Source: an uncultured archaeon (GTDB lineage Archaea > Iainarchaeota > Iainarchaeia > Iainarchaeales > CSSED10-239). From it: DNA of 22,040 nucleotides. Positions 1 through 22,040 of the stretch are shown piece by piece (the first letter of the stretch is position 1; each line of letters begins with the position of its first letter). Below the pieces are notes generated by a model that was not told the DNA's origin, searched no databases, and saw only the letters and a program-made list of their open reading frames with translations. The stretch lies in the NCBI GenBank assembly GCA_964586355.1, contig CAZPGO010000047.1, positions 1 to 22,040 on the forward strand. The letters are read 5' to 3'. The position numbers and the translations under genes were made by a program.

Positions 1-1
1 T

Positions 2-76
2 GGTATAACCATTCCTGGAGATTCAGGAGACGGCACAGGGTTTCCAGCAGGGTTTGGGGATTGGTGGAGAATATGA
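2..76 (+). CDS. Possible 3' end of a CDS truncated by the window edge (...GITIPGDSGDGTGFPAGFGDWWRI*)
   Basis: Frame 2 is open from the window edge to TGA at 74-76. The stretch is visibly more GC-rich than the AT-rich spacer that follows, as coding DNA is elsewhere here. No start codon or recognisable motif is visible. Confidence 0.3.
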   Translation, partial: GITIPGDSGDGTGFPAGFGDWWRI

Positions 77-212
77 CTGAATATAGATATTTTACAAATT
101 TCTACTGGTTGGGAAGTTTGGTTAAAACAATCTTTTTTATATAATAGTTCTTTTTTAAAAACATTTACATTATATTATATATGTGTTATAAATTAATTTG
201 GGGGTAAAAAAT

Positions 213-6782: not shown

Positions 6783-8132
6783 ATGAGAGTTTTACCAGAA
6801 GATAAAGGAAAGCTTGTTACTATTAAAAAAAAAGATGTTACTTATAAAGGGTATATTGTAAATATAATTGAAAAAAACAACCTTCAAGAACTAACTATAA
6901 AACTTTTAGATAATGGGTATAATATTTCTGTGTTAATTGATTCTGATACAAAAATAGTTGTTGGTACAGAAAGTAAAATATTTGGTCAAAAACAAAAGAT
7001 CAATATTACTCAAAACCCTAATTTGCCTTCTGTTGCTTTAATAGCAACAGGGGGGACTATTGGTACTCATGTAGATTATAAGAGCGGGGCTGTAAGTATG
7101 TCTAGATCTGCTGAGGAAATTATTTTTACTGTTCCTGAATTGTTAGATATAATAAATATTAAAAAAATAGACTCTATATCCATGAAAGGAAGCGAAGATC
7201 TTGGTTATAAAGATTGGCAAAAAATGTCAGAGAGTGTTTTTAAAGCCCTTAATGATTCAGATATTAAAGGCATTATTATTTTACATGGAACAGATACTCT
7301 TGCATGGAGTGGAACTGCAATATCATTTATGATAGAAAATATAAATAAGCCAGTACTTTTAGTAGGTGCTCAAAAATCCCCTGATCGTGCAAGCTTTGAT
7401 GGGGCTATGAATCTTATTTGTGCTGCTAGGTTTATTGATCAACAAGTGCCAGGAGTCTTTACAGTTATGCATGGATCAATAAATGATGATTTTTGTGATG
7501 TTATTAGAGCAACAAAATGTAGAAAAATGCATTCTTCAAGAAGAGATTCTTTTAAAGCAATAAACGATTTACCAATAGCAAGAGTTTTTGAGAATGGTGA
7601 GATAACTTATCTAAAAGATAAAAATAAGTTATCAAAACCAATAGGGAAACCAAAAATAAACAATTGCTTTTCTGATTCTGTTGCTATTTTAAAAGCATAC
7701 CCAAATAGTGATCCAAAAATAATAGAGTGGTATATTGAAAATAACTATAAGGGTTTAATTATAGAAGGCACTGGTTTAGGTCATTGTCCAATAGGTCTAG
7801 GAGGAGATGATACTTCTTTTGATTCTAATAAAAATTGGGCCCCTTACATAAAAAAAGCAAATGATGCTGGACTAATAGTAATAATTACAACTCAGTGTTT
7901 GTTTGGAAGAGTAAATGCAAATGTTTATGCAAATTTAAGGTATCTAAAAGAAGCAGGAGCAAACTACTTAGACTCACATGATATGCTTTGTGAAGTTGCT
8001 TATATAAAATTATGTGTGGCTTTAGCAAGATTTGATAAAAAAGAAGAAGTTCTAGAATTTATGAAAACAGATATATCTGGAGAGATTTCTAAAAAAGAAG
8101 TAGTAAAAAGTTTTGAATTAGATTTATTATGA
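6783..8132 (+). CDS. gatD: Glutamyl-tRNA(Gln) amidotransferase subunit D
   Basis: Asparaginase-type active-site motif 'ATGGTIG', plus 'HGTDT' and 'EGTGLGH'. It has the N-terminal domain of about 80 aa typical of GatD. Its stop overlaps the gatE start as ATGA. Confidence 0.92.
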   Translation: MRVLPEDKGKLVTIKKKDVTYKGYIVNIIEKNNLQELTIKLLDNGYNISVLIDSDTKIVVGTESKIFGQKQKINITQNPNLPSVALIATGGTIGTHVDYKSGAVSMSRSAEEIIFTVPELLDIINIKKIDSISMKGSEDLGYKDWQKMSESVFKALNDSDIKGIIILHGTDTLAWSGTAISFMIENINKPVLLVGAQKSPDRASFDGAMNLICAARFIDQQVPGVFTVMHGSINDDFCDVIRATKCRKMHSSRRDSFKAINDLPIARVFENGEITYLKDKNKLSKPIGKPKINNCFSDSVAILKAYPNSDPKIIEWYIENNYKGLIIEGTGLGHCPIGLGGDDTSFDSNKNWAPYIKKANDAGLIVIITTQCLFGRVNANVYANLRYLKEAGANYLDSHDMLCEVAYIKLCVALARFDKKEEVLEFMKTDISGEISKKEVVKSFELDLL

Positions 8133-13574: not shown

Positions 13575-14906
13575 ATGATTAATAAAATATCTCTCTCCCC
13601 ATTGATCGCCACGATCTTACTTATTGTTGTTACTGTTGTATTAGCAACCATAATTTTAACCTGGGGAAAAGATCTAGTTACTTCTTCTGTTCAAAATACT
13701 GATTCAATAACTAAAACTAATCTTTTTAGTGACAGACAATATTCTATTAGATTTTTAGAAGCAAAAAATGGCAGATATTTTTTTGATTATCATTCACCAC
13801 CTAGTGATGTTGAGTTTACTGTTGTTAGTTATGCTTATGTTGGTTATCCATATGTTCCTTTAGAACCAGAAAAAACAATAAGTTCCCAAGGCAGATTCTA
13901 TTTAGATCTTGGTATTGTTGATGAAGATCGTTTTAGTATTTCTTTACTTTTAGATGATGGAAGTTATTTAAATTTTGAAAATGTAACTAATGTTAATAGA
14001 TCTCCTTCTCCAAGTGATTGTCCTGTAGGTTATATTCCAGTACCTGGTAATCATCTATATGGAACTGTTGGATCAAAAGGCGGATTTTGTGTTATGAAAT
14101 ATGAGGCAAAAGTTGATGAGGATGGTGACGGGATTGGAGATGTTAATGCTACATGTCAAAATTCTAATTTTGGAACTTGGAATAATAATGGTGCTAGTTG
14201 TAGTTATACTTTAAATAATAGAGTTATTGTTTCAAGTGCTGTTGGATATCCATTAGCAACAATTTCATTACTAGAATCTATTACTGCTTGTGAATCTATT
14301 AATAGTAATTTAATAACAAATGATGAGTGGATGACAATTGCAAGAAATATTGAAAGAGTTTCAAGTAATTGGTCAAGTAATATAATTGGTACTGGATATA
14401 TTTATTCAGGACATAGTGATAATTTACCTCCGGCTGCATTAGCTTCCAATATAAATGATAATAATGGTTATTATTTAACTGGTCAAACAACTGGTAATCA
14501 AAAAAGAACTTTAATTTTAAATAATGGAGAAATCATTTGGGATTTTGCTGGTAATGTGTTTGAAAATAGTGAAGATATGAATTCTTTTTATTTAAGTACT
14601 TATTATGATAATTTTGCTGATTGGACAGAAATTGAATACTCTGATTTTTATAAATTTAGTTTTGAAGATTTAGGGTTAAAAGGTTATAAAGGTAATTTTT
14701 TATTAAATTCAGATTATAATAGTGATGCTGGTGTTGGTAGAACCAGGGGTGTTAGACATAATAATCCTTATAGAGATACAGCCCTTATTAGAAGTGGTTA
14801 TTGGAATGGCACTTCTGGTGCTGGTATTTTGAGTTTAGATGTAGGTGATAATCCTACTGGTAGATTTTCAACAGTTGGGTTTCGTTGCGTATATTATCCA
14901 GAATGA
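13575..14906 (+). CDS. Archaeal type IV pilin-like (class III signal peptide) surface protein with a C-terminal FGE-sulfatase/SUMF1-like (C-type-lectin-fold) domain
   Basis: N-terminus 'MINKIS|LSPLIATILLIVVTVVLATIILTWGKD' matches the archaeal pilin/flagellin N-terminal signature. The C-terminal half carries 'GFCVMKYEAK', 'ITACESINSNLITNDEWMTIARN', 'IWDFAGNVFE' and a terminal 'VGFRCV'. Their order matches FGE-sulfatase domain motifs as I recall them. Confidence 0.8.
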   Translation: MINKISLSPLIATILLIVVTVVLATIILTWGKDLVTSSVQNTDSITKTNLFSDRQYSIRFLEAKNGRYFFDYHSPPSDVEFTVVSYAYVGYPYVPLEPEKTISSQGRFYLDLGIVDEDRFSISLLLDDGSYLNFENVTNVNRSPSPSDCPVGYIPVPGNHLYGTVGSKGGFCVMKYEAKVDEDGDGIGDVNATCQNSNFGTWNNNGASCSYTLNNRVIVSSAVGYPLATISLLESITACESINSNLITNDEWMTIARNIERVSSNWSSNIIGTGYIYSGHSDNLPPAALASNINDNNGYYLTGQTTGNQKRTLILNNGEIIWDFAGNVFENSEDMNSFYLSTYYDNFADWTEIEYSDFYKFSFEDLGLKGYKGNFLLNSDYNSDAGVGRTRGVRHNNPYRDTALIRSGYWNGTSGAGILSLDVGDNPTGRFSTVGFRCVYYPE

Positions 14907-14950
14907 TCTAATGCTTATTCTAAAAACCAACTAGATGCTTTTCTTTTCGT
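14889..14950. repeat. Direct repeat copy A (62 bp), left boundary of the LamG-pilin cassette
   Basis: 'gtatattatccagaat' is 16/16 identical to 16088-16103. 'ttattctaaaaaccaactagatgcttttcttttcgt' is 34/36 identical to 16117-16152 (hand-counted). The two blocks are separated by a non-matching 10-nt versus 13-nt core. Confidence 0.85.
14915..14950 (-). pseudogene. Relic of the last 11 codons plus stop of the 156-aa gene (paralogous to 16117-16152)
   Basis: The reverse complement reads TKRKASSWFLE*, against TKRKAPSWFLE* at the true 3' end of CDS 16117..16587. Upstream of this the similarity stops. The track ORF 14915..15100 is therefore not a gene. Confidence 0.7.
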
Positions 14951-14953
14951 AAT

Positions 14954-14979
14954 CTTTTTATATGTTTTCTTCTTTTTAT
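14954..14979 (+). promoter_or_regulatory. Conserved promoter module (TATA-like 'ctttttatat' plus downstream T-rich block) of the LamG-pilin gene
   Basis: 'ctttttatatgttttcttctttttat' is identical to 21901-21926, upstream of the third pilin gene. The TATA-like element lies about 25-30 nt before ATG 14985, which implies a leaderless or very short-leader archaeal transcript. Confidence 0.6.
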
Positions 14980-14984
14980 ATATT

Positions 14985-15965
14985 ATGTTTTTATTTAAGA
15001 AATCAGTTTCTCCCTTGATCGCAACAATCTTAATAATAGTTATTAGTGTTATATTGATCACTGTTGTTTTAAGTTGGGGAAAAAATTTTACAGAAAACAA
15101 ATTAAGTTCTTCAACTATTTCTACAGAAAAAGATCTAGAATATGTTACTCTTCCAAAAAGTTATATTTTATCATCTCATTTTCCTAATTACAATTCTATT
15201 CTTTTACAAAATACTAGTGATAAAAACATTACTGTTGTTAGTTATAAGTTAATAAGTCCAAATAACAATTATAAATATTTAAATAAAGACATAAATGTTG
15301 ATTCTTTTAATATTTTTCCAGGAGAATTAAAACCATTTCCTATTATTTGTTTTCCAGATGAAACATTTATTTTGTTATTAAAAACAGATAAAGATCAATA
15401 CATTTCTGTTAATATTAATACTGGTTATTTAAAATATTCTGGTTATTGTTTAGGAGAAAGTGGTTTAATATTTAGAGAAGATTTTGATTCAGAAGAAGCT
15501 GTTATTGAAAATGGGGGTGCTCCATTAAATGTAATTTATGAAAATGGTGTTGGGATTTTTAATGGCACGAGTAGTTATATTATATATAATAAACCATTAA
15601 ATGGAACTTATACTTTTAGAATAATTATTAAAGATTTTGTTTTAAATGATTATAAATATCTAATGAGTAGATACCCAGATACTTCTGGAACTGTTGGTTA
15701 TATTAATTTAATGGCAGACGGAACATTAAGAAATGATGCTTTTGATACAAAATATATTAATGGTGTTGAAAGTAGTGTTATTACAAATACAGATCATACA
15801 GAATTAGTAATTAGTGGCATTTCATTTAATTTTCTAAAATTTGTTGTTGGTGCGATGAGAAATTTGTCTTCTGCAAGTATTTTTAACGGCAAAATAGAAT
15901 TATTTGAAATCTACAACAGAACACTTACAGCTGATGAGATTAAAACTTTATATGATTATAATTAA
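14985..15965 (+). CDS. Archaeal type IV pilin-like (class III signal peptide) surface protein with a C-terminal LamG/concanavalin-A-like lectin domain
   Basis: N-terminus 'MFLFKKS|VSPLIATILIIVISVILITVVLSWGKN'. The C-terminal 160 aa or so carry 'IFNGTSSYIIY', 'FTFRIIIKDF' and 'VVGAMRN....IFNGKIELFEIYNRTLTADEIKTLY'. This matches the Laminin_G_3-type pattern (F.G...y; l.iG; f.G.idev.iynraLsa.EI..ly). Confidence 0.8.
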   Translation: MFLFKKSVSPLIATILIIVISVILITVVLSWGKNFTENKLSSSTISTEKDLEYVTLPKSYILSSHFPNYNSILLQNTSDKNITVVSYKLISPNNNYKYLNKDINVDSFNIFPGELKPFPIICFPDETFILLLKTDKDQYISVNINTGYLKYSGYCLGESGLIFREDFDSEEAVIENGGAPLNVIYENGVGIFNGTSSYIIYNKPLNGTYTFRIIIKDFVLNDYKYLMSRYPDTSGTVGYINLMADGTLRNDAFDTKYINGVESSVITNTDHTELVISGISFNFLKFVVGAMRNLSSASIFNGKIELFEIYNRTLTADEIKTLYDYN

Positions 15966-15971
15966 TTTTTT
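15966..15971 (+). terminator. Oligo-T tract after the LamG-pilin stop
   Basis: Six T directly follow TAA at 15963-15965. Specificity is low in AT-rich DNA. Confidence 0.25.
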
Positions 15972-16087
15972 ATGATCTCAATATTAAAAAAATAATATTT
16001 TTATAAGAGAAAATAATTAATTATATTATAGATCACTATATGAATTATAAAAATTTATCTGAATTGATAAGTATTGATTTTTTTACT

Positions 16088-16152
16088 GTATATTATCCAG
16101 AATAAGCTTTAATTATTTATTCTAAAAACCAACTAGGTGCTTTTCTTTTTGT
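16088..16152. repeat. Direct repeat copy B (65 bp), right boundary of the LamG-pilin cassette
   Basis: Partner of 14889-14950. It begins with a relic of the last five codons of the FGE-pilin gene ('gta tat tat cca gaa t' = VYYPE plus the first stop base). It ends inside the true 3' end of CDS 16117..16587. Confidence 0.85.
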
Positions 16153-16587
16153 CCATTTTGCAAAATCTGCTTTTTCTTTTTTATAATATTTTCTATATGC
16201 TTTTATTGCATTTTTTTCTTTATATTCTTCAGGTGTAGCTTGAGCAAATTCTGTTAAACCAATATTTGGAAGATTTGGAATATTTTCTAAGATTTTTTTT
16301 ATTTCAATAGTTTTGTGTGTTTTTCCATATCTGTAAGTATATTCTTTTAATAGTTCTTTAAGATGTTCTAATAACCAAACATAATTTTCTTTAGATTCAT
16401 TTGCCCAAATAACACAAGGATGTTTTTCGTGTGTTTTTTTATATAAAAGATCTTTATACTTAGAATTAGTTAAATGATGTGCTGTTGAGAGAATTTGAGC
16501 AGACTCAACTATCATTTTTACTACATGTTTATCACAAAGCATTCTTGCTGCTTTTTTTGGATCTTTATCCAAAACAAATATTTGCAT
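16117..16587 (-). CDS. Conserved hypothetical protein (N-terminal 'LDKDPKKAARMLCDKHVVKMIVESAQILSTAHH' motif)
   Basis: Clean 156-aa ORF, 15 nt downstream of and co-oriented with the 69-aa gene. I recall the D.DP..AA..LCDKHVVKM..E.AQ.LS motif from uncharacterised proteins often encoded by phages, large viruses and scattered bacteria. I cannot name the family. Confidence 0.65.
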   Translation of the reverse strand: MQIFVLDKDPKKAARMLCDKHVVKMIVESAQILSTAHHLTNSKYKDLLYKKTHEKHPCVIWANESKENYVWLLEHLKELLKEYTYRYGKTHKTIEIKKILENIPNLPNIGLTEFAQATPEEYKEKNAIKAYRKYYKKEKADFAKWTKRKAPSWFLE

Positions 16588-16842: not shown

Positions 16843-16915
16843 TAGCCCGAAGGAGATTCGAACTCCTGTCGCAAGATCCAGAGTCTTGCATGCTTGGCCA
16901 CTACACTATCGGGCT
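16843..16915 (-). tRNA. tRNA-Gln (anticodon CUG), 73 nt, no encoded CCA
   Basis: The reverse complement folds by hand into a cloverleaf. Acceptor AGCCCGA/TCGGGCT with discriminator A. D-arm GTGT-AGTGGCCAA-GCAT. Anticodon stem CAAGA/TCTTG with loop CTCTGGA (positions 34-36 = CTG). T-arm AGGAG-TTCGAAT-CTCCT. The segment is GC-rich in an AT-rich background. Confidence 0.93.
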
Positions 16916-21463: not shown

Positions 21464-21547
21464 TTTTATTCACCTATATATATATTATTTAGAAAATCTA
21501 TATATAGGGTTTGGTAGGGGGGGTCTTGTCCACTGGAGCCTTTCTTA

Positions 21548-21860
21548 AAAAGAAAGCCTCGGGAAAGAACAAAAATGGTTACGCTTTCGTTGACACGCAA
21601 TATAACCGGTTACGCTCGGTTAATGTGCAATTATAAGTTTATGCAAAAACGAAATGAAAAGAAAGCCTTGGGAAAGAACAAAAAGGGTTTCGCTTATAAC
21701 CCTTTTAGAAAAAATGCTTAACCCCAAAATAAACTGTTTCATAAGAAGTGTAATCAAATAATTTTTTTCAAAAAAAGTTTAATCAAAAACGAGATAAAAG
21801 AAAGCTTAAGCAAAGAAAATAAAAAAATAATCAAAAATGAGATCAGAAAAAAATTATTAC
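21548..21860 (+). repeat. Degenerate direct repeats in a long spacer
   Basis: Units at 21548-21585 and 21657-21694 are 35/38 identical (hand-counted): 'aaaagaaagcctcgggaaagaacaaaaatggttacgct' versus 'aaaagaaagccttgggaaagaacaaaaagggtttcgct'. A decayed third copy starts at 21796 and a possible fourth near 21832. Units 2-4 are preceded by 'caaaaa(c/t)ga(a/g)at'. Nested 'ggttacgct' repeats occur at 21577 and 21608. Confidence 0.7.
21681..21706 (+). other. Perfect 9-bp stem / 8-nt loop hairpin inside repeat unit 2
   Basis: 'aaaagggtt' (21681-21689) pairs with 'aaccctttt' (21698-21706) around the loop 'tcgcttat'. Repeat unit 1 has only a weaker 5-bp version (ggtta...taacc). Confidence 0.5.
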
Positions 21861-21900
21861 TAAAACCTAGTAACTATCTATTTTTCTTATTTTTCGCAAC

Positions 21901-21926
21901 CTTTTTATATGTTTTCTTCTTTTTAT
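21901..21926 (+). promoter_or_regulatory. Conserved promoter module of the third pilin-like gene (identical to 14954-14979)
   Basis: 26/26 nt identity with the module upstream of the LamG-pilin gene. With flanks, 34/36 nt match from 21891. The TATA-like 'ctttttatat' lies about 25-30 nt upstream of ATG 21933. Confidence 0.6.
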
Positions 21927-21932
21927 TTAAAT

Positions 21933-22040
21933 ATGTTTCACAAGCGTTCTGTTTCTCCCTTAATCGCCACAATTTTATTAATAGTTGTTAGTGTAATATT
22001 AGTTACTGTTGTTTTAACTTGGGGATCAGACTTTGCAAAA
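21933..22040 (+). CDS. 5' end (36 codons) of a third archaeal type IV pilin-like protein, truncated by the window end
   Basis: Translates to 'MFHKRS|VSPLIATILLIVVSVILVTVVLTWGSDFAK'. In the 75 nt encoding VSP...WG, 65 are identical to the LamG-pilin gene (hand alignment, no indel). Confidence 0.8.
   Translation, partial: MFHKRSVSPLIATILLIVVSVILVTVVLTWGSDFAK

Follow-up and report, generated by a model that had tools for sequence, protein, structure and literature searches.

Probable exchange of promoter and N-terminal segments among pilin-like genes of an uncultured Iainarchaeales archaeon by non-reciprocal recombination and cassette insertion

Two pilin-like genes, A and B, lie 6.9 kb apart in the 22,040-nt stretch of DNA analysed here (the window), which is the entire contig C47 of a 904-kb genome assembly (G000; 54 contigs, 27% GC, 86% complete; C-numbers denote its contigs) from an uncultured archaeon of the Iainarchaeales. 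They have in common a 36-nt block upstream of the start codon and a 75-nt segment encoding the protein N-terminus, which an earlier note on this DNA had read together as one promoter and signal-peptide module. Our comparison within the genome and with related genomes revealed two layers of homology of different ages that have been joined, namely a coding segment found throughout the gene family and a specific 36-nt upstream block, and their distribution is probably the outcome of promoter and N-terminal segments being swapped among paralogues by non-reciprocal recombination combined with cassette insertion. The features of the two genes are as follows (positions of the window).

14944 to 14979, forward strand: putative type-1 core promoter block of gene A, with a B recognition element (BRE) cgTaaT, TTTATA at 14957-14962 and a pyrimidine-rich proximal element.
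14985 to 15965, forward strand: gene A, pilin-like, 326 aa, with class III signal peptide, alpha-1 helix, stalk and LamG/ConA-like C-terminal head.
15006 to 15080, forward strand: conserved VSP..WG coding segment of gene A, family-wide.
21891 to 21926, forward strand: putative type-1 core promoter block of gene B, with TTTATA at 21904-21909; identical at 36/36 positions to that of a third gene, C.
21933 to 22040, forward strand: 5' end of gene B (MFHKRS followed by VSPLIATILLIVVSVILVTVVLTWGSDFAK...), cut by the contig end.

On realignment the counts given in the earlier note all held. The blocks at 14944-14979 and 21891-21926 are identical at 34/36 nt and contain the 26-mer CTTTTTATATGTTTTCTTCTTTTTAT as an exact match (14954-14979 and 21901-21926); the VSP..WG segments at 15006-15080 and 21951-22025 are identical at 65/75 nt; and the n-regions between them differ (MFLFKKS in A and MFHKRS in B, that is, LFKKS versus HKRS) with a 3-nt difference in length. 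A third exact copy of the 26-mer was found at C30:102968-102993, upstream of the pilin-like gene C, whose ATG is at C30:103000. These three forward copies were the only ones in the genome at up to three mismatches (reversed-pattern control, 0), and none of 100 dinucleotide-preserving shuffles of the window gave a block match at the same threshold. The relatives searched for the block comprised nine congeners, including the sister species G005, and 31 further relatives (n=40); the 26-mer was not found in any of them, the only matches being two with three mismatches in another genus of the family, which were not examined. An exact scan of metagenome contigs from JGI also gave no match to the 26-mer, an uninformative result, since that scan evidently does not cover records of this same population, in which the 26-mer is present. 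The possibility raised beforehand that the 26-mer is a generic promoter consensus is thus not borne out, and in gene C another pilin paralogue does carry the block. Pairwise differences over the block were 2/36 for A-B, 2/36 for A-C and 0/36 for B-C; both positions at which A departs from B and C fall in the BRE-proximal part, and the 26 nt from the TATA box to -6 are invariant in the three copies. The homology between B and C extends a further ~70 nt upstream of the block at 91% identity. Furthermore, the exact gene A protein with its block is present in four other public assemblies, L023-L026 (99.96-100% identity), two of which, L023 and L024, also have the block copy of gene B, and both copies recur in independent assemblies of the same population; the four assemblies represent one strain and thus offer zero polymorphism to use.

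The layout of the block, which extends from the BRE/TATA elements through -6, resembles a minimal archaeal promoter. TTTATA starts at -28 from the ATG in A and at -29 in B and C, the BRE-like sequence cgTaaT/cgCaaC lies directly upstream of the TATA box, and there is no Shine-Dalgarno (SD) sequence. Across 704 crude gene calls the start positions of TTTATA peak at -28 to -30 genome-wide, and a separate gene set carries GGTG at -11 to -8; a TATA-like hexamer begins between -34 and -24 in ~13 genes of the family, which lack an SD, and the pilins of the pilus operon have one. Judged by sequence, the spacing in A and B therefore fits a genome-wide leaderless class, as had been proposed from the TATA-to-ATG distance, and we infer that the block belongs to the core promoters of leaderless transcripts, of which it is one sub-type. 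In A the upstream ATG at 14962 does not share the reading frame of the gene, which marks the block as non-coding; the in-frame upstream ATG of B and C, taken as start by a public gene caller (MFSSFYLN...), was rejected, because the same ATG in A is out of frame and meets a stop. Other sub-types serve other members of the family: the pilin genes of G005 use different ones, one of which is common to four G000 genes, and P1, the gene next to A, has a different type shared with the paralogue C23_1435.

Further sequence features of the promoter regions were recorded. In the A promoter the decamer CTTTTTATAT occurs twice, 18 nt apart (14954-14963 and 14972-14981), and in B and C the second copy reads CTTTTTATTT instead. 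A third pilin promoter sub-type (gtaatctttatat...) is found at C5:55530-55560, C39:80-110 (minus strand) and C10:60-120 (minus strand), with an (ATT)n microsatellite of 6, 5 and 7 units, respectively, between the TATA box and the ATG. The differing unit numbers set the TATA-to-ATG spacing at ~28, 25 and 31 nt, and this sub-type is a candidate slipped-strand expression switch for leaderless genes. A putative fourth copy of the block at the start of C10 was rejected, as it represents this different, microsatellite-bearing type.

In contrast to the block, the coding segment is not private to A and B. A motif scan of the genome returned 28 N-terminal segments of the type SPLIATILLIVVSVIL.TVVLTWG, with a mean pairwise identity of 0.73 over the 75 nt. 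Counted from the Ser codon, the segment of A has an identity of 0.84 to that of B and of 0.85-0.88 to those of C34_1884, C54_10072, C33_24032 and C23_1435, all of which have upstream DNA unrelated to that of A. The view of promoter and signal peptide as one homogeneous module accordingly has to be given up, since the coding part is family-wide and A is closer to four other paralogues. The segment (15009-15080 in A, and its counterparts in all paralogues) is written in codons that are rare for the genome (TCC 5%, TTG 10%, ATC 8%, ACG 1%), and among congeners its TCC-CCA-TTG-ATC version is confined to G000 (24 motif hits) and G005 (13 hits); no other congener has more than one motif hit, and that in common codons. 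The 28 copies and the restriction of the rare-codon version to these two species indicate a lineage-specific expansion of one front end. Synonymous-only differences account for 24% (A-B), 41% (A-C) and 29% (B-C) of same-residue codons in the helix segment.

Both proteins have the class III signal layout (MFLFKKS followed by VSPLIATILIIVISVILITVVLSWG in A, MFHKRS followed by VSPLIATILLIVVSVILVTVVLTWG in B): the n-region is short and basic, residue -1 is small, and a hydrophobic helix of ~20 residues comes next. P1 and B score 25.0 and 23.7 bits on TIGR02537 (cut-off 20); A has no NCBIfam match and reaches 18.4 bits on Pilin_N (PF07790), under the cut-off of 25.2, and is counted as pilin-like because its helix segment is 84-88% identical in nucleotides to those of its paralogues. 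The N-terminal coding segment is a class III signal peptide plus alpha-1 helix, a front end common to ~28 modular pilin-like genes. The genome also encodes pilus machinery, with two Peptidase_A24 and five T2SSE ATPase matches, all above cut-off.

The bodies that follow this front end in A, B and C are unrelated, and the similarity of their 5' regions is thus not that of a simple recent duplication, an outcome the earlier note had allowed for. Gene A ends in a head that matches Laminin_G_3 (E=1.3e-4), and its body is nearest to a paralogue on C25 (56% identity over 168 aa; 72% in nucleotides); BLASTP gave no match between the bodies of A and C. Gene B was completed from a 35-kb public contig (L023:16949-18651, equivalent to window positions 21933 to about 23635), where the stalk module of C38/C23/C54 is followed by ten tandem 66-nt (22-aa) repeats, DLPSGLTYYxNxGSNTTxGDIA. 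Compared with four paralogues, B has a 1-nt deletion at L023:17086 (window-equivalent 22070), 137 nt after the ATG; its reading frame ends after 54 codons, the repeats lie out of frame, and the same sequence is present in the second assembly, L024. This frameshift weakens the idea of alternative adhesins for the B copy. Gene C is 42% identical to P1, which has an FGE-sulfatase-like fold, and on a longer public contig (L044:4726-8414, corresponding to C30:102976 onward into C10) an Avd-like gene, bAvd and a reverse transcriptase come after it. The variable repeat at L044 5961-6069 differs from the template repeat at 7048-7156 at adenines of the template, which identifies gene C as the target of a diversity-generating retroelement (DGR). 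One putative promoter sub-type therefore serves three unrelated heads: LamG-like in A, repeat-rich and frameshifted in B, and a DGR-diversified lectin fold in C.

The 4-kb DGR block of gene C separates a SpoIIM-like gene from PriL, two genes that adjoin each other in four congeners, and an imperfect 21-nt direct repeat is seen at both of its edges (L044 4535-4555 and 8491-8511). P1 was considered as a second DGR target and rejected, as its similarity to the template repeat is weak and covers no more than 20 nt. Database relatives of the P1 architecture, a pilin N-terminus with an FGE-sulfatase-like head, number more than 1,000 and include bacterial proteins in which the N_methyl prepilin motif (PF07963) is fused to PF03781; the same head has thus been placed on both archaeal and bacterial pilin stalks.

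Gene B is a recombinant whose upstream region is like that of C and whose helix segment is like that of a third gene, on C52. Upstream, B is 91-100% identical to C over ~100 nt, and its last 99 nt in the window are identical to the end of C52 within the helix segment (a shared k=99 graph node); the C52 gene has an unrelated upstream region and different neighbours. Informative sites in the triplet B/C/C52 divide 25:0 to the left of the breakpoint and 0:13 to its right (Fisher P=1.8 × 10−10, uncorrected, over 37 possible breakpoints), and the breakpoint lies just past the start codon, within ~10 nt. At its other end gene B also has a repeated sequence: window positions 1-99 are identical to its last 74 nt plus 25 nt past its stop (L023:18576-18674), the coding part of this tail reading ...GITIPGDSGDGTGFPAGFGDWWRI before the stop codon. 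Another gene upstream of the window accordingly has the same ending, and the repeat explains the contig break; several N-terminal segments of the family likewise stand at contig ends, where they break the assembly.

At locus A the block is the edge of a larger unit, bounded by two copies of a presumed target sequence.

13575 to 14906, forward strand: P1, pilin-like, 443 aa, with an FGE-sulfatase/C-type-lectin-like head; homologues carry PF03781.
14889 to 14950, forward strand: U1, left copy of the presumed target duplication, comprising the last 18 nt of P1 (VYYPE and stop), 8 nt of spacer and, as a dead copy, the final 36 nt of the Pyr_excise gene.
14951 to 16087, forward strand: single-gene insert of 1,137 nt, in which promoter block and gene A are followed by 122 nt of 3' flank with a T7 run (16078-16084) at its end.
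16088 to 16152, forward strand: U2, right copy of the presumed target duplication, comprising a dead P1 3' end (VYYPE and stop), an 11-nt spacer and the live Pyr_excise 3' end.
16117 to 16587, reverse strand: Pyr_excise-family gene (PF03013, E=6e-11), the presumed host gene, with its 3' end copied in the course of the insertion.

U1 (62 nt) and U2 (65 nt) are identical at 55/62 positions with a 3-nt indel, and their local alignment scores z=21.9 against shuffles; among 20 family genes with scorable flanks, A alone has such flanking repeats. Position 14944, within the final 7 nt of the left repeat (junction 14944-14950), is where the homology of A to B and C sets in, which places the start of the insert ~10 nt upstream of the TATA box. 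The insert holds one open reading frame (ORF), gene A, with only pilin and LamG matches, and no transposase, integrase or mobile-element gene. Orthologues of the Pyr_excise gene occur in seven of the nine congeners, and in six congeners a CNNM/CBS gene is directly convergent with it, neither P1 nor A lying between, so that both P1 and A are insertions. The Pyr_excise half of the U repeat aligns with the 3' ends of the congener genes (for example, in G009), and the P1 half has no counterpart there. For P1 itself a target duplication was proposed and rejected, as the 8-nt TTATTCTA match concerned belongs to its promoter type.

Taken together, these patterns suggest that the 36-nt block spread by non-reciprocal recombination and not by whole-gene duplication. 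At locus A the block would form the 5' edge of a 1,137-nt promoter-gene-terminator cassette that inserted between P1 and the Pyr_excise gene with a 62-nt target duplication and without a mobility gene; at locus B a C-like copy would have supplied the upstream region and a third paralogue the helix segment. Promoter and signal-peptide parts would accordingly move separately, with breakpoints near the start codon. Given the position of the block at the cassette edge and the mosaic structure of B, the conserved 5' segments appear to act both as exchangeable units and as recombination substrates; it is from these patterns that we infer the direction of transfer and the mechanism of insertion. The earlier suggestion of a portable 5' cassette kept uniform by conversion survives in the part that concerns non-reciprocal 5' exchange, to which the 25:0 versus 0:13 division in B testifies, but not in its unity, as the parts seem to move separately and the A copy seems to have come by cassette insertion.

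An alternative is that the block is an operator-like cis-regulatory element, held near-invariant by purifying selection since an old duplication, with A, B and C under one regulator and either co-regulated or mutually exclusive in expression. With 0-2 differences per 36 nt the block is far better kept than the adjacent synonymous positions (24-41%) and the n-region, the departures of A being confined to the BRE-proximal side of an invariant 26-nt stretch; CTTTTTATAT occurs twice within the block at an 18-nt interval, and a gene for an AsnC-type double-helix-turn-helix (HTH) regulator lies between A and B. Yet the block was found neither in G005, whose pilin family has undergone the same expansion under promoters of other types, nor among the other 39 relatives searched, B is frameshifted, and the homology to B and C stops exactly at the cassette junction. 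Moreover, U1 and U2 have diverged as much as the block or more (11% versus 6%), so that a recent origin alone suffices to explain its identity, with no need for selection on a regulatory site, although such selection is possible. We regard this regulatory account as improbable, although it is compatible with non-reciprocal exchange and the two need not exclude each other. It is very unlikely that a single pilin gene and its promoter were recently duplicated in one simple event to give A and B, which then diverged downstream: the contiguous 82% identity over ~138 nt (14944 to 15080) would fit such an event, but the bodies have separate affinities (A with the C25 paralogue, B with the C38/C23/C54 module, C with P1), A has closer coding relatives that lack the block, and the n-region between the two conserved blocks is ~40% different, with an indel. 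Least credible of all is that the similarity reflects a low-complexity, AT-rich promoter consensus or an assembly artefact; such a reading could draw on the 27% GC of the genome, the T-rich block and the contig breaks at pilin N-termini, but is opposed by the shuffles (0/100 matching), by the reversed-pattern control (0) and by the presence of both copies on one contig and their recurrence in independent assemblies (99.98-100% identity).

Several points weigh against exchange by recombination and cassette insertion as we have proposed it. The 94% identity of the block would also be expected if purifying selection acted on a regulatory site, both explanations being compatible, and promoter activity and a leaderless start are predicted from sequence. 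No genome was found with P1 next to the Pyr_excise gene and without A, the only state seen being the deeper one without both, and a search of 5.8 billion proteins yielded no donor of cassette A, the best non-self match being the C25 paralogue of this genome. The 99-nt identity of B and C52 is in part a shared assembly-graph node, confirmed by independent contigs on the B side but not on the C52 side, and the greater closeness of the A coding segment to other paralogues than to B is weak (18 versus 9 informative sites).

Between A and B lie the Pyr_excise gene, tRNA-Gln(CTG), an NT5C-like gene, the HTH regulator, an XPD-type helicase and an HD protein, in agreement with the tRNA-Gln, xpd-type and other genes named in the earlier note. 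Two further features belong to this interval.

16843 to 16915, reverse strand: tRNA-Gln(CTG), situated between the two promoter copies; no second tRNA gene with this anticodon is present in the genome (86% complete).
21548 to 21834, forward strand: dispersed hairpin-like repeat with core AAAGAAAGCCTNGGGAAAGAA, three copies, in the 470-nt intergenic region upstream of B.

The tRNA was the single match in an Rfam search of the window. The AAAGAAAGCCTNGGGAAAGAA repeat, which has no Rfam match, occurs in 13 copies in the genome at up to three mismatches, three of them upstream of B, three downstream of it (L023:18821-19012) and one upstream of C (C30:102856). Adjoining its first copy upstream of B is a G-rich island, tagggtttggtagggggggtcttgtccactggagcc, at 21505-21545, which is unusual at 27% GC and also has no Rfam match.

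DPANN archaea attach to other cells, and how their attachment proteins vary is poorly known; here a 0.9-Mb genome keeps ~28 pilin-like genes with exchangeable expression front ends. A broader proposal, which we put forward tentatively and consider rather doubtful as a whole, is that pilin-type adhesin genes of DPANN archaea are self-contained mobile expression cassettes (minimal leaderless promoter, gene and terminator) that insert without a dedicated enzyme by long target duplication, and that their near-identical promoter and N-terminal helix segments offer ongoing non-reciprocal recombination the handles by which promoters, stalks and heads are paired anew; with DGR mutagenesis and changes in promoter repeat length added, this would constitute an archaeal system of adhesin variation. 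The sequences of this locus could serve to test leaderless promoters in archaea, surface variation driven by recombination outside bacteria and the insertion of archaeal genes without an integrase.

Among known systems, pilE/pilS of Neisseria also relies on non-reciprocal recombination among pilin paralogues guided by conserved segments. There, variable parts pass into a single expression locus from pilS donors that are devoid of promoter and N-terminal coding region. Here, in contrast, the N-terminal segment is retained in every copy examined and a promoter-like region is present in most of the stand-alone ones, and it is the front ends themselves that appear to be exchanged, so that the family does not consist of silent cassettes of the Neisseria type.

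The nearest analogue is provided by the vsp genes of Mycoplasma bovis and the vpma genes of M. agalactiae, in which a conserved 5' untranslated region and signal-peptide region precede non-homologous mature parts (PMC2268961) and the conserved 5' region is also the site of recombination. Both there and here a surface multigene family resides in a small genome, and our family has an N-terminal segment common to 28 copies and promoter sub-types distributed across unrelated bodies. In Mycoplasma, a tyrosine recombinase (Xer1/Mbr) inverts DNA at a single locus so that one promoter drives one gene at a time, whereas the genes described here stand alone at dispersed loci, each with its own putative TATA-type promoter of one of several sub-types, and have a class III (pilin) signal instead of a lipoprotein signal. 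Furthermore, A and B are in direct and not inverted orientation, 6.9 kb apart, an arrangement that does not constitute an inversion switch, and a Pfam scan of ten window ORFs, including every large ORF between A and B, gave no match to a recombinase family.

Conserved stretches of paralogues also serve as sites of homologous recombination in the lpl cluster of Staphylococcus aureus (Tsuru and Kobayashi 2008), where variable parts are shuffled and intergenic DNA along with the gene's 5' part evolves as a unit apart from the rest of the ORF (PMC2568036). The lpl genes are in tandem and their conserved stretch is central, whereas here the stretch is the N-terminal helix, the loci are dispersed and the breakpoints fall at the start codon and after the helix. 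The A cassette resembles insertion with long target duplication (Nobusato et al. 2000; Furuta, Abe and Kobayashi 2010), a process defined on bacterial restriction-modification units by direct repeats of >30 bp (PMC2853133): the insert is short (<20 kb) and without a mobility gene, and the flanking direct repeats, 62/65 nt around 1,137 nt, fall within the size limits and would duplicate single-copy target sequence. It differs from those cases in that the immediate empty site was not seen and in its cargo, which in this DPANN archaeon is a pilin-like gene together with a promoter of its own; in the survey of such duplications no archaeal case survived the screen (PMC2853133). Finally, modular type IV pilins are represented by PilB and PilC of Streptococcus sanguinis (Raynaud et al. 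2021), which join a pilin N-terminal module to a head, for example a lectin-like one (PMC8179133). Those are single minor pilins encoded in the pil operon, whereas the family described here comprises dozens of stand-alone paralogues with their own promoters, among which the 5' module appears to be exchanged.

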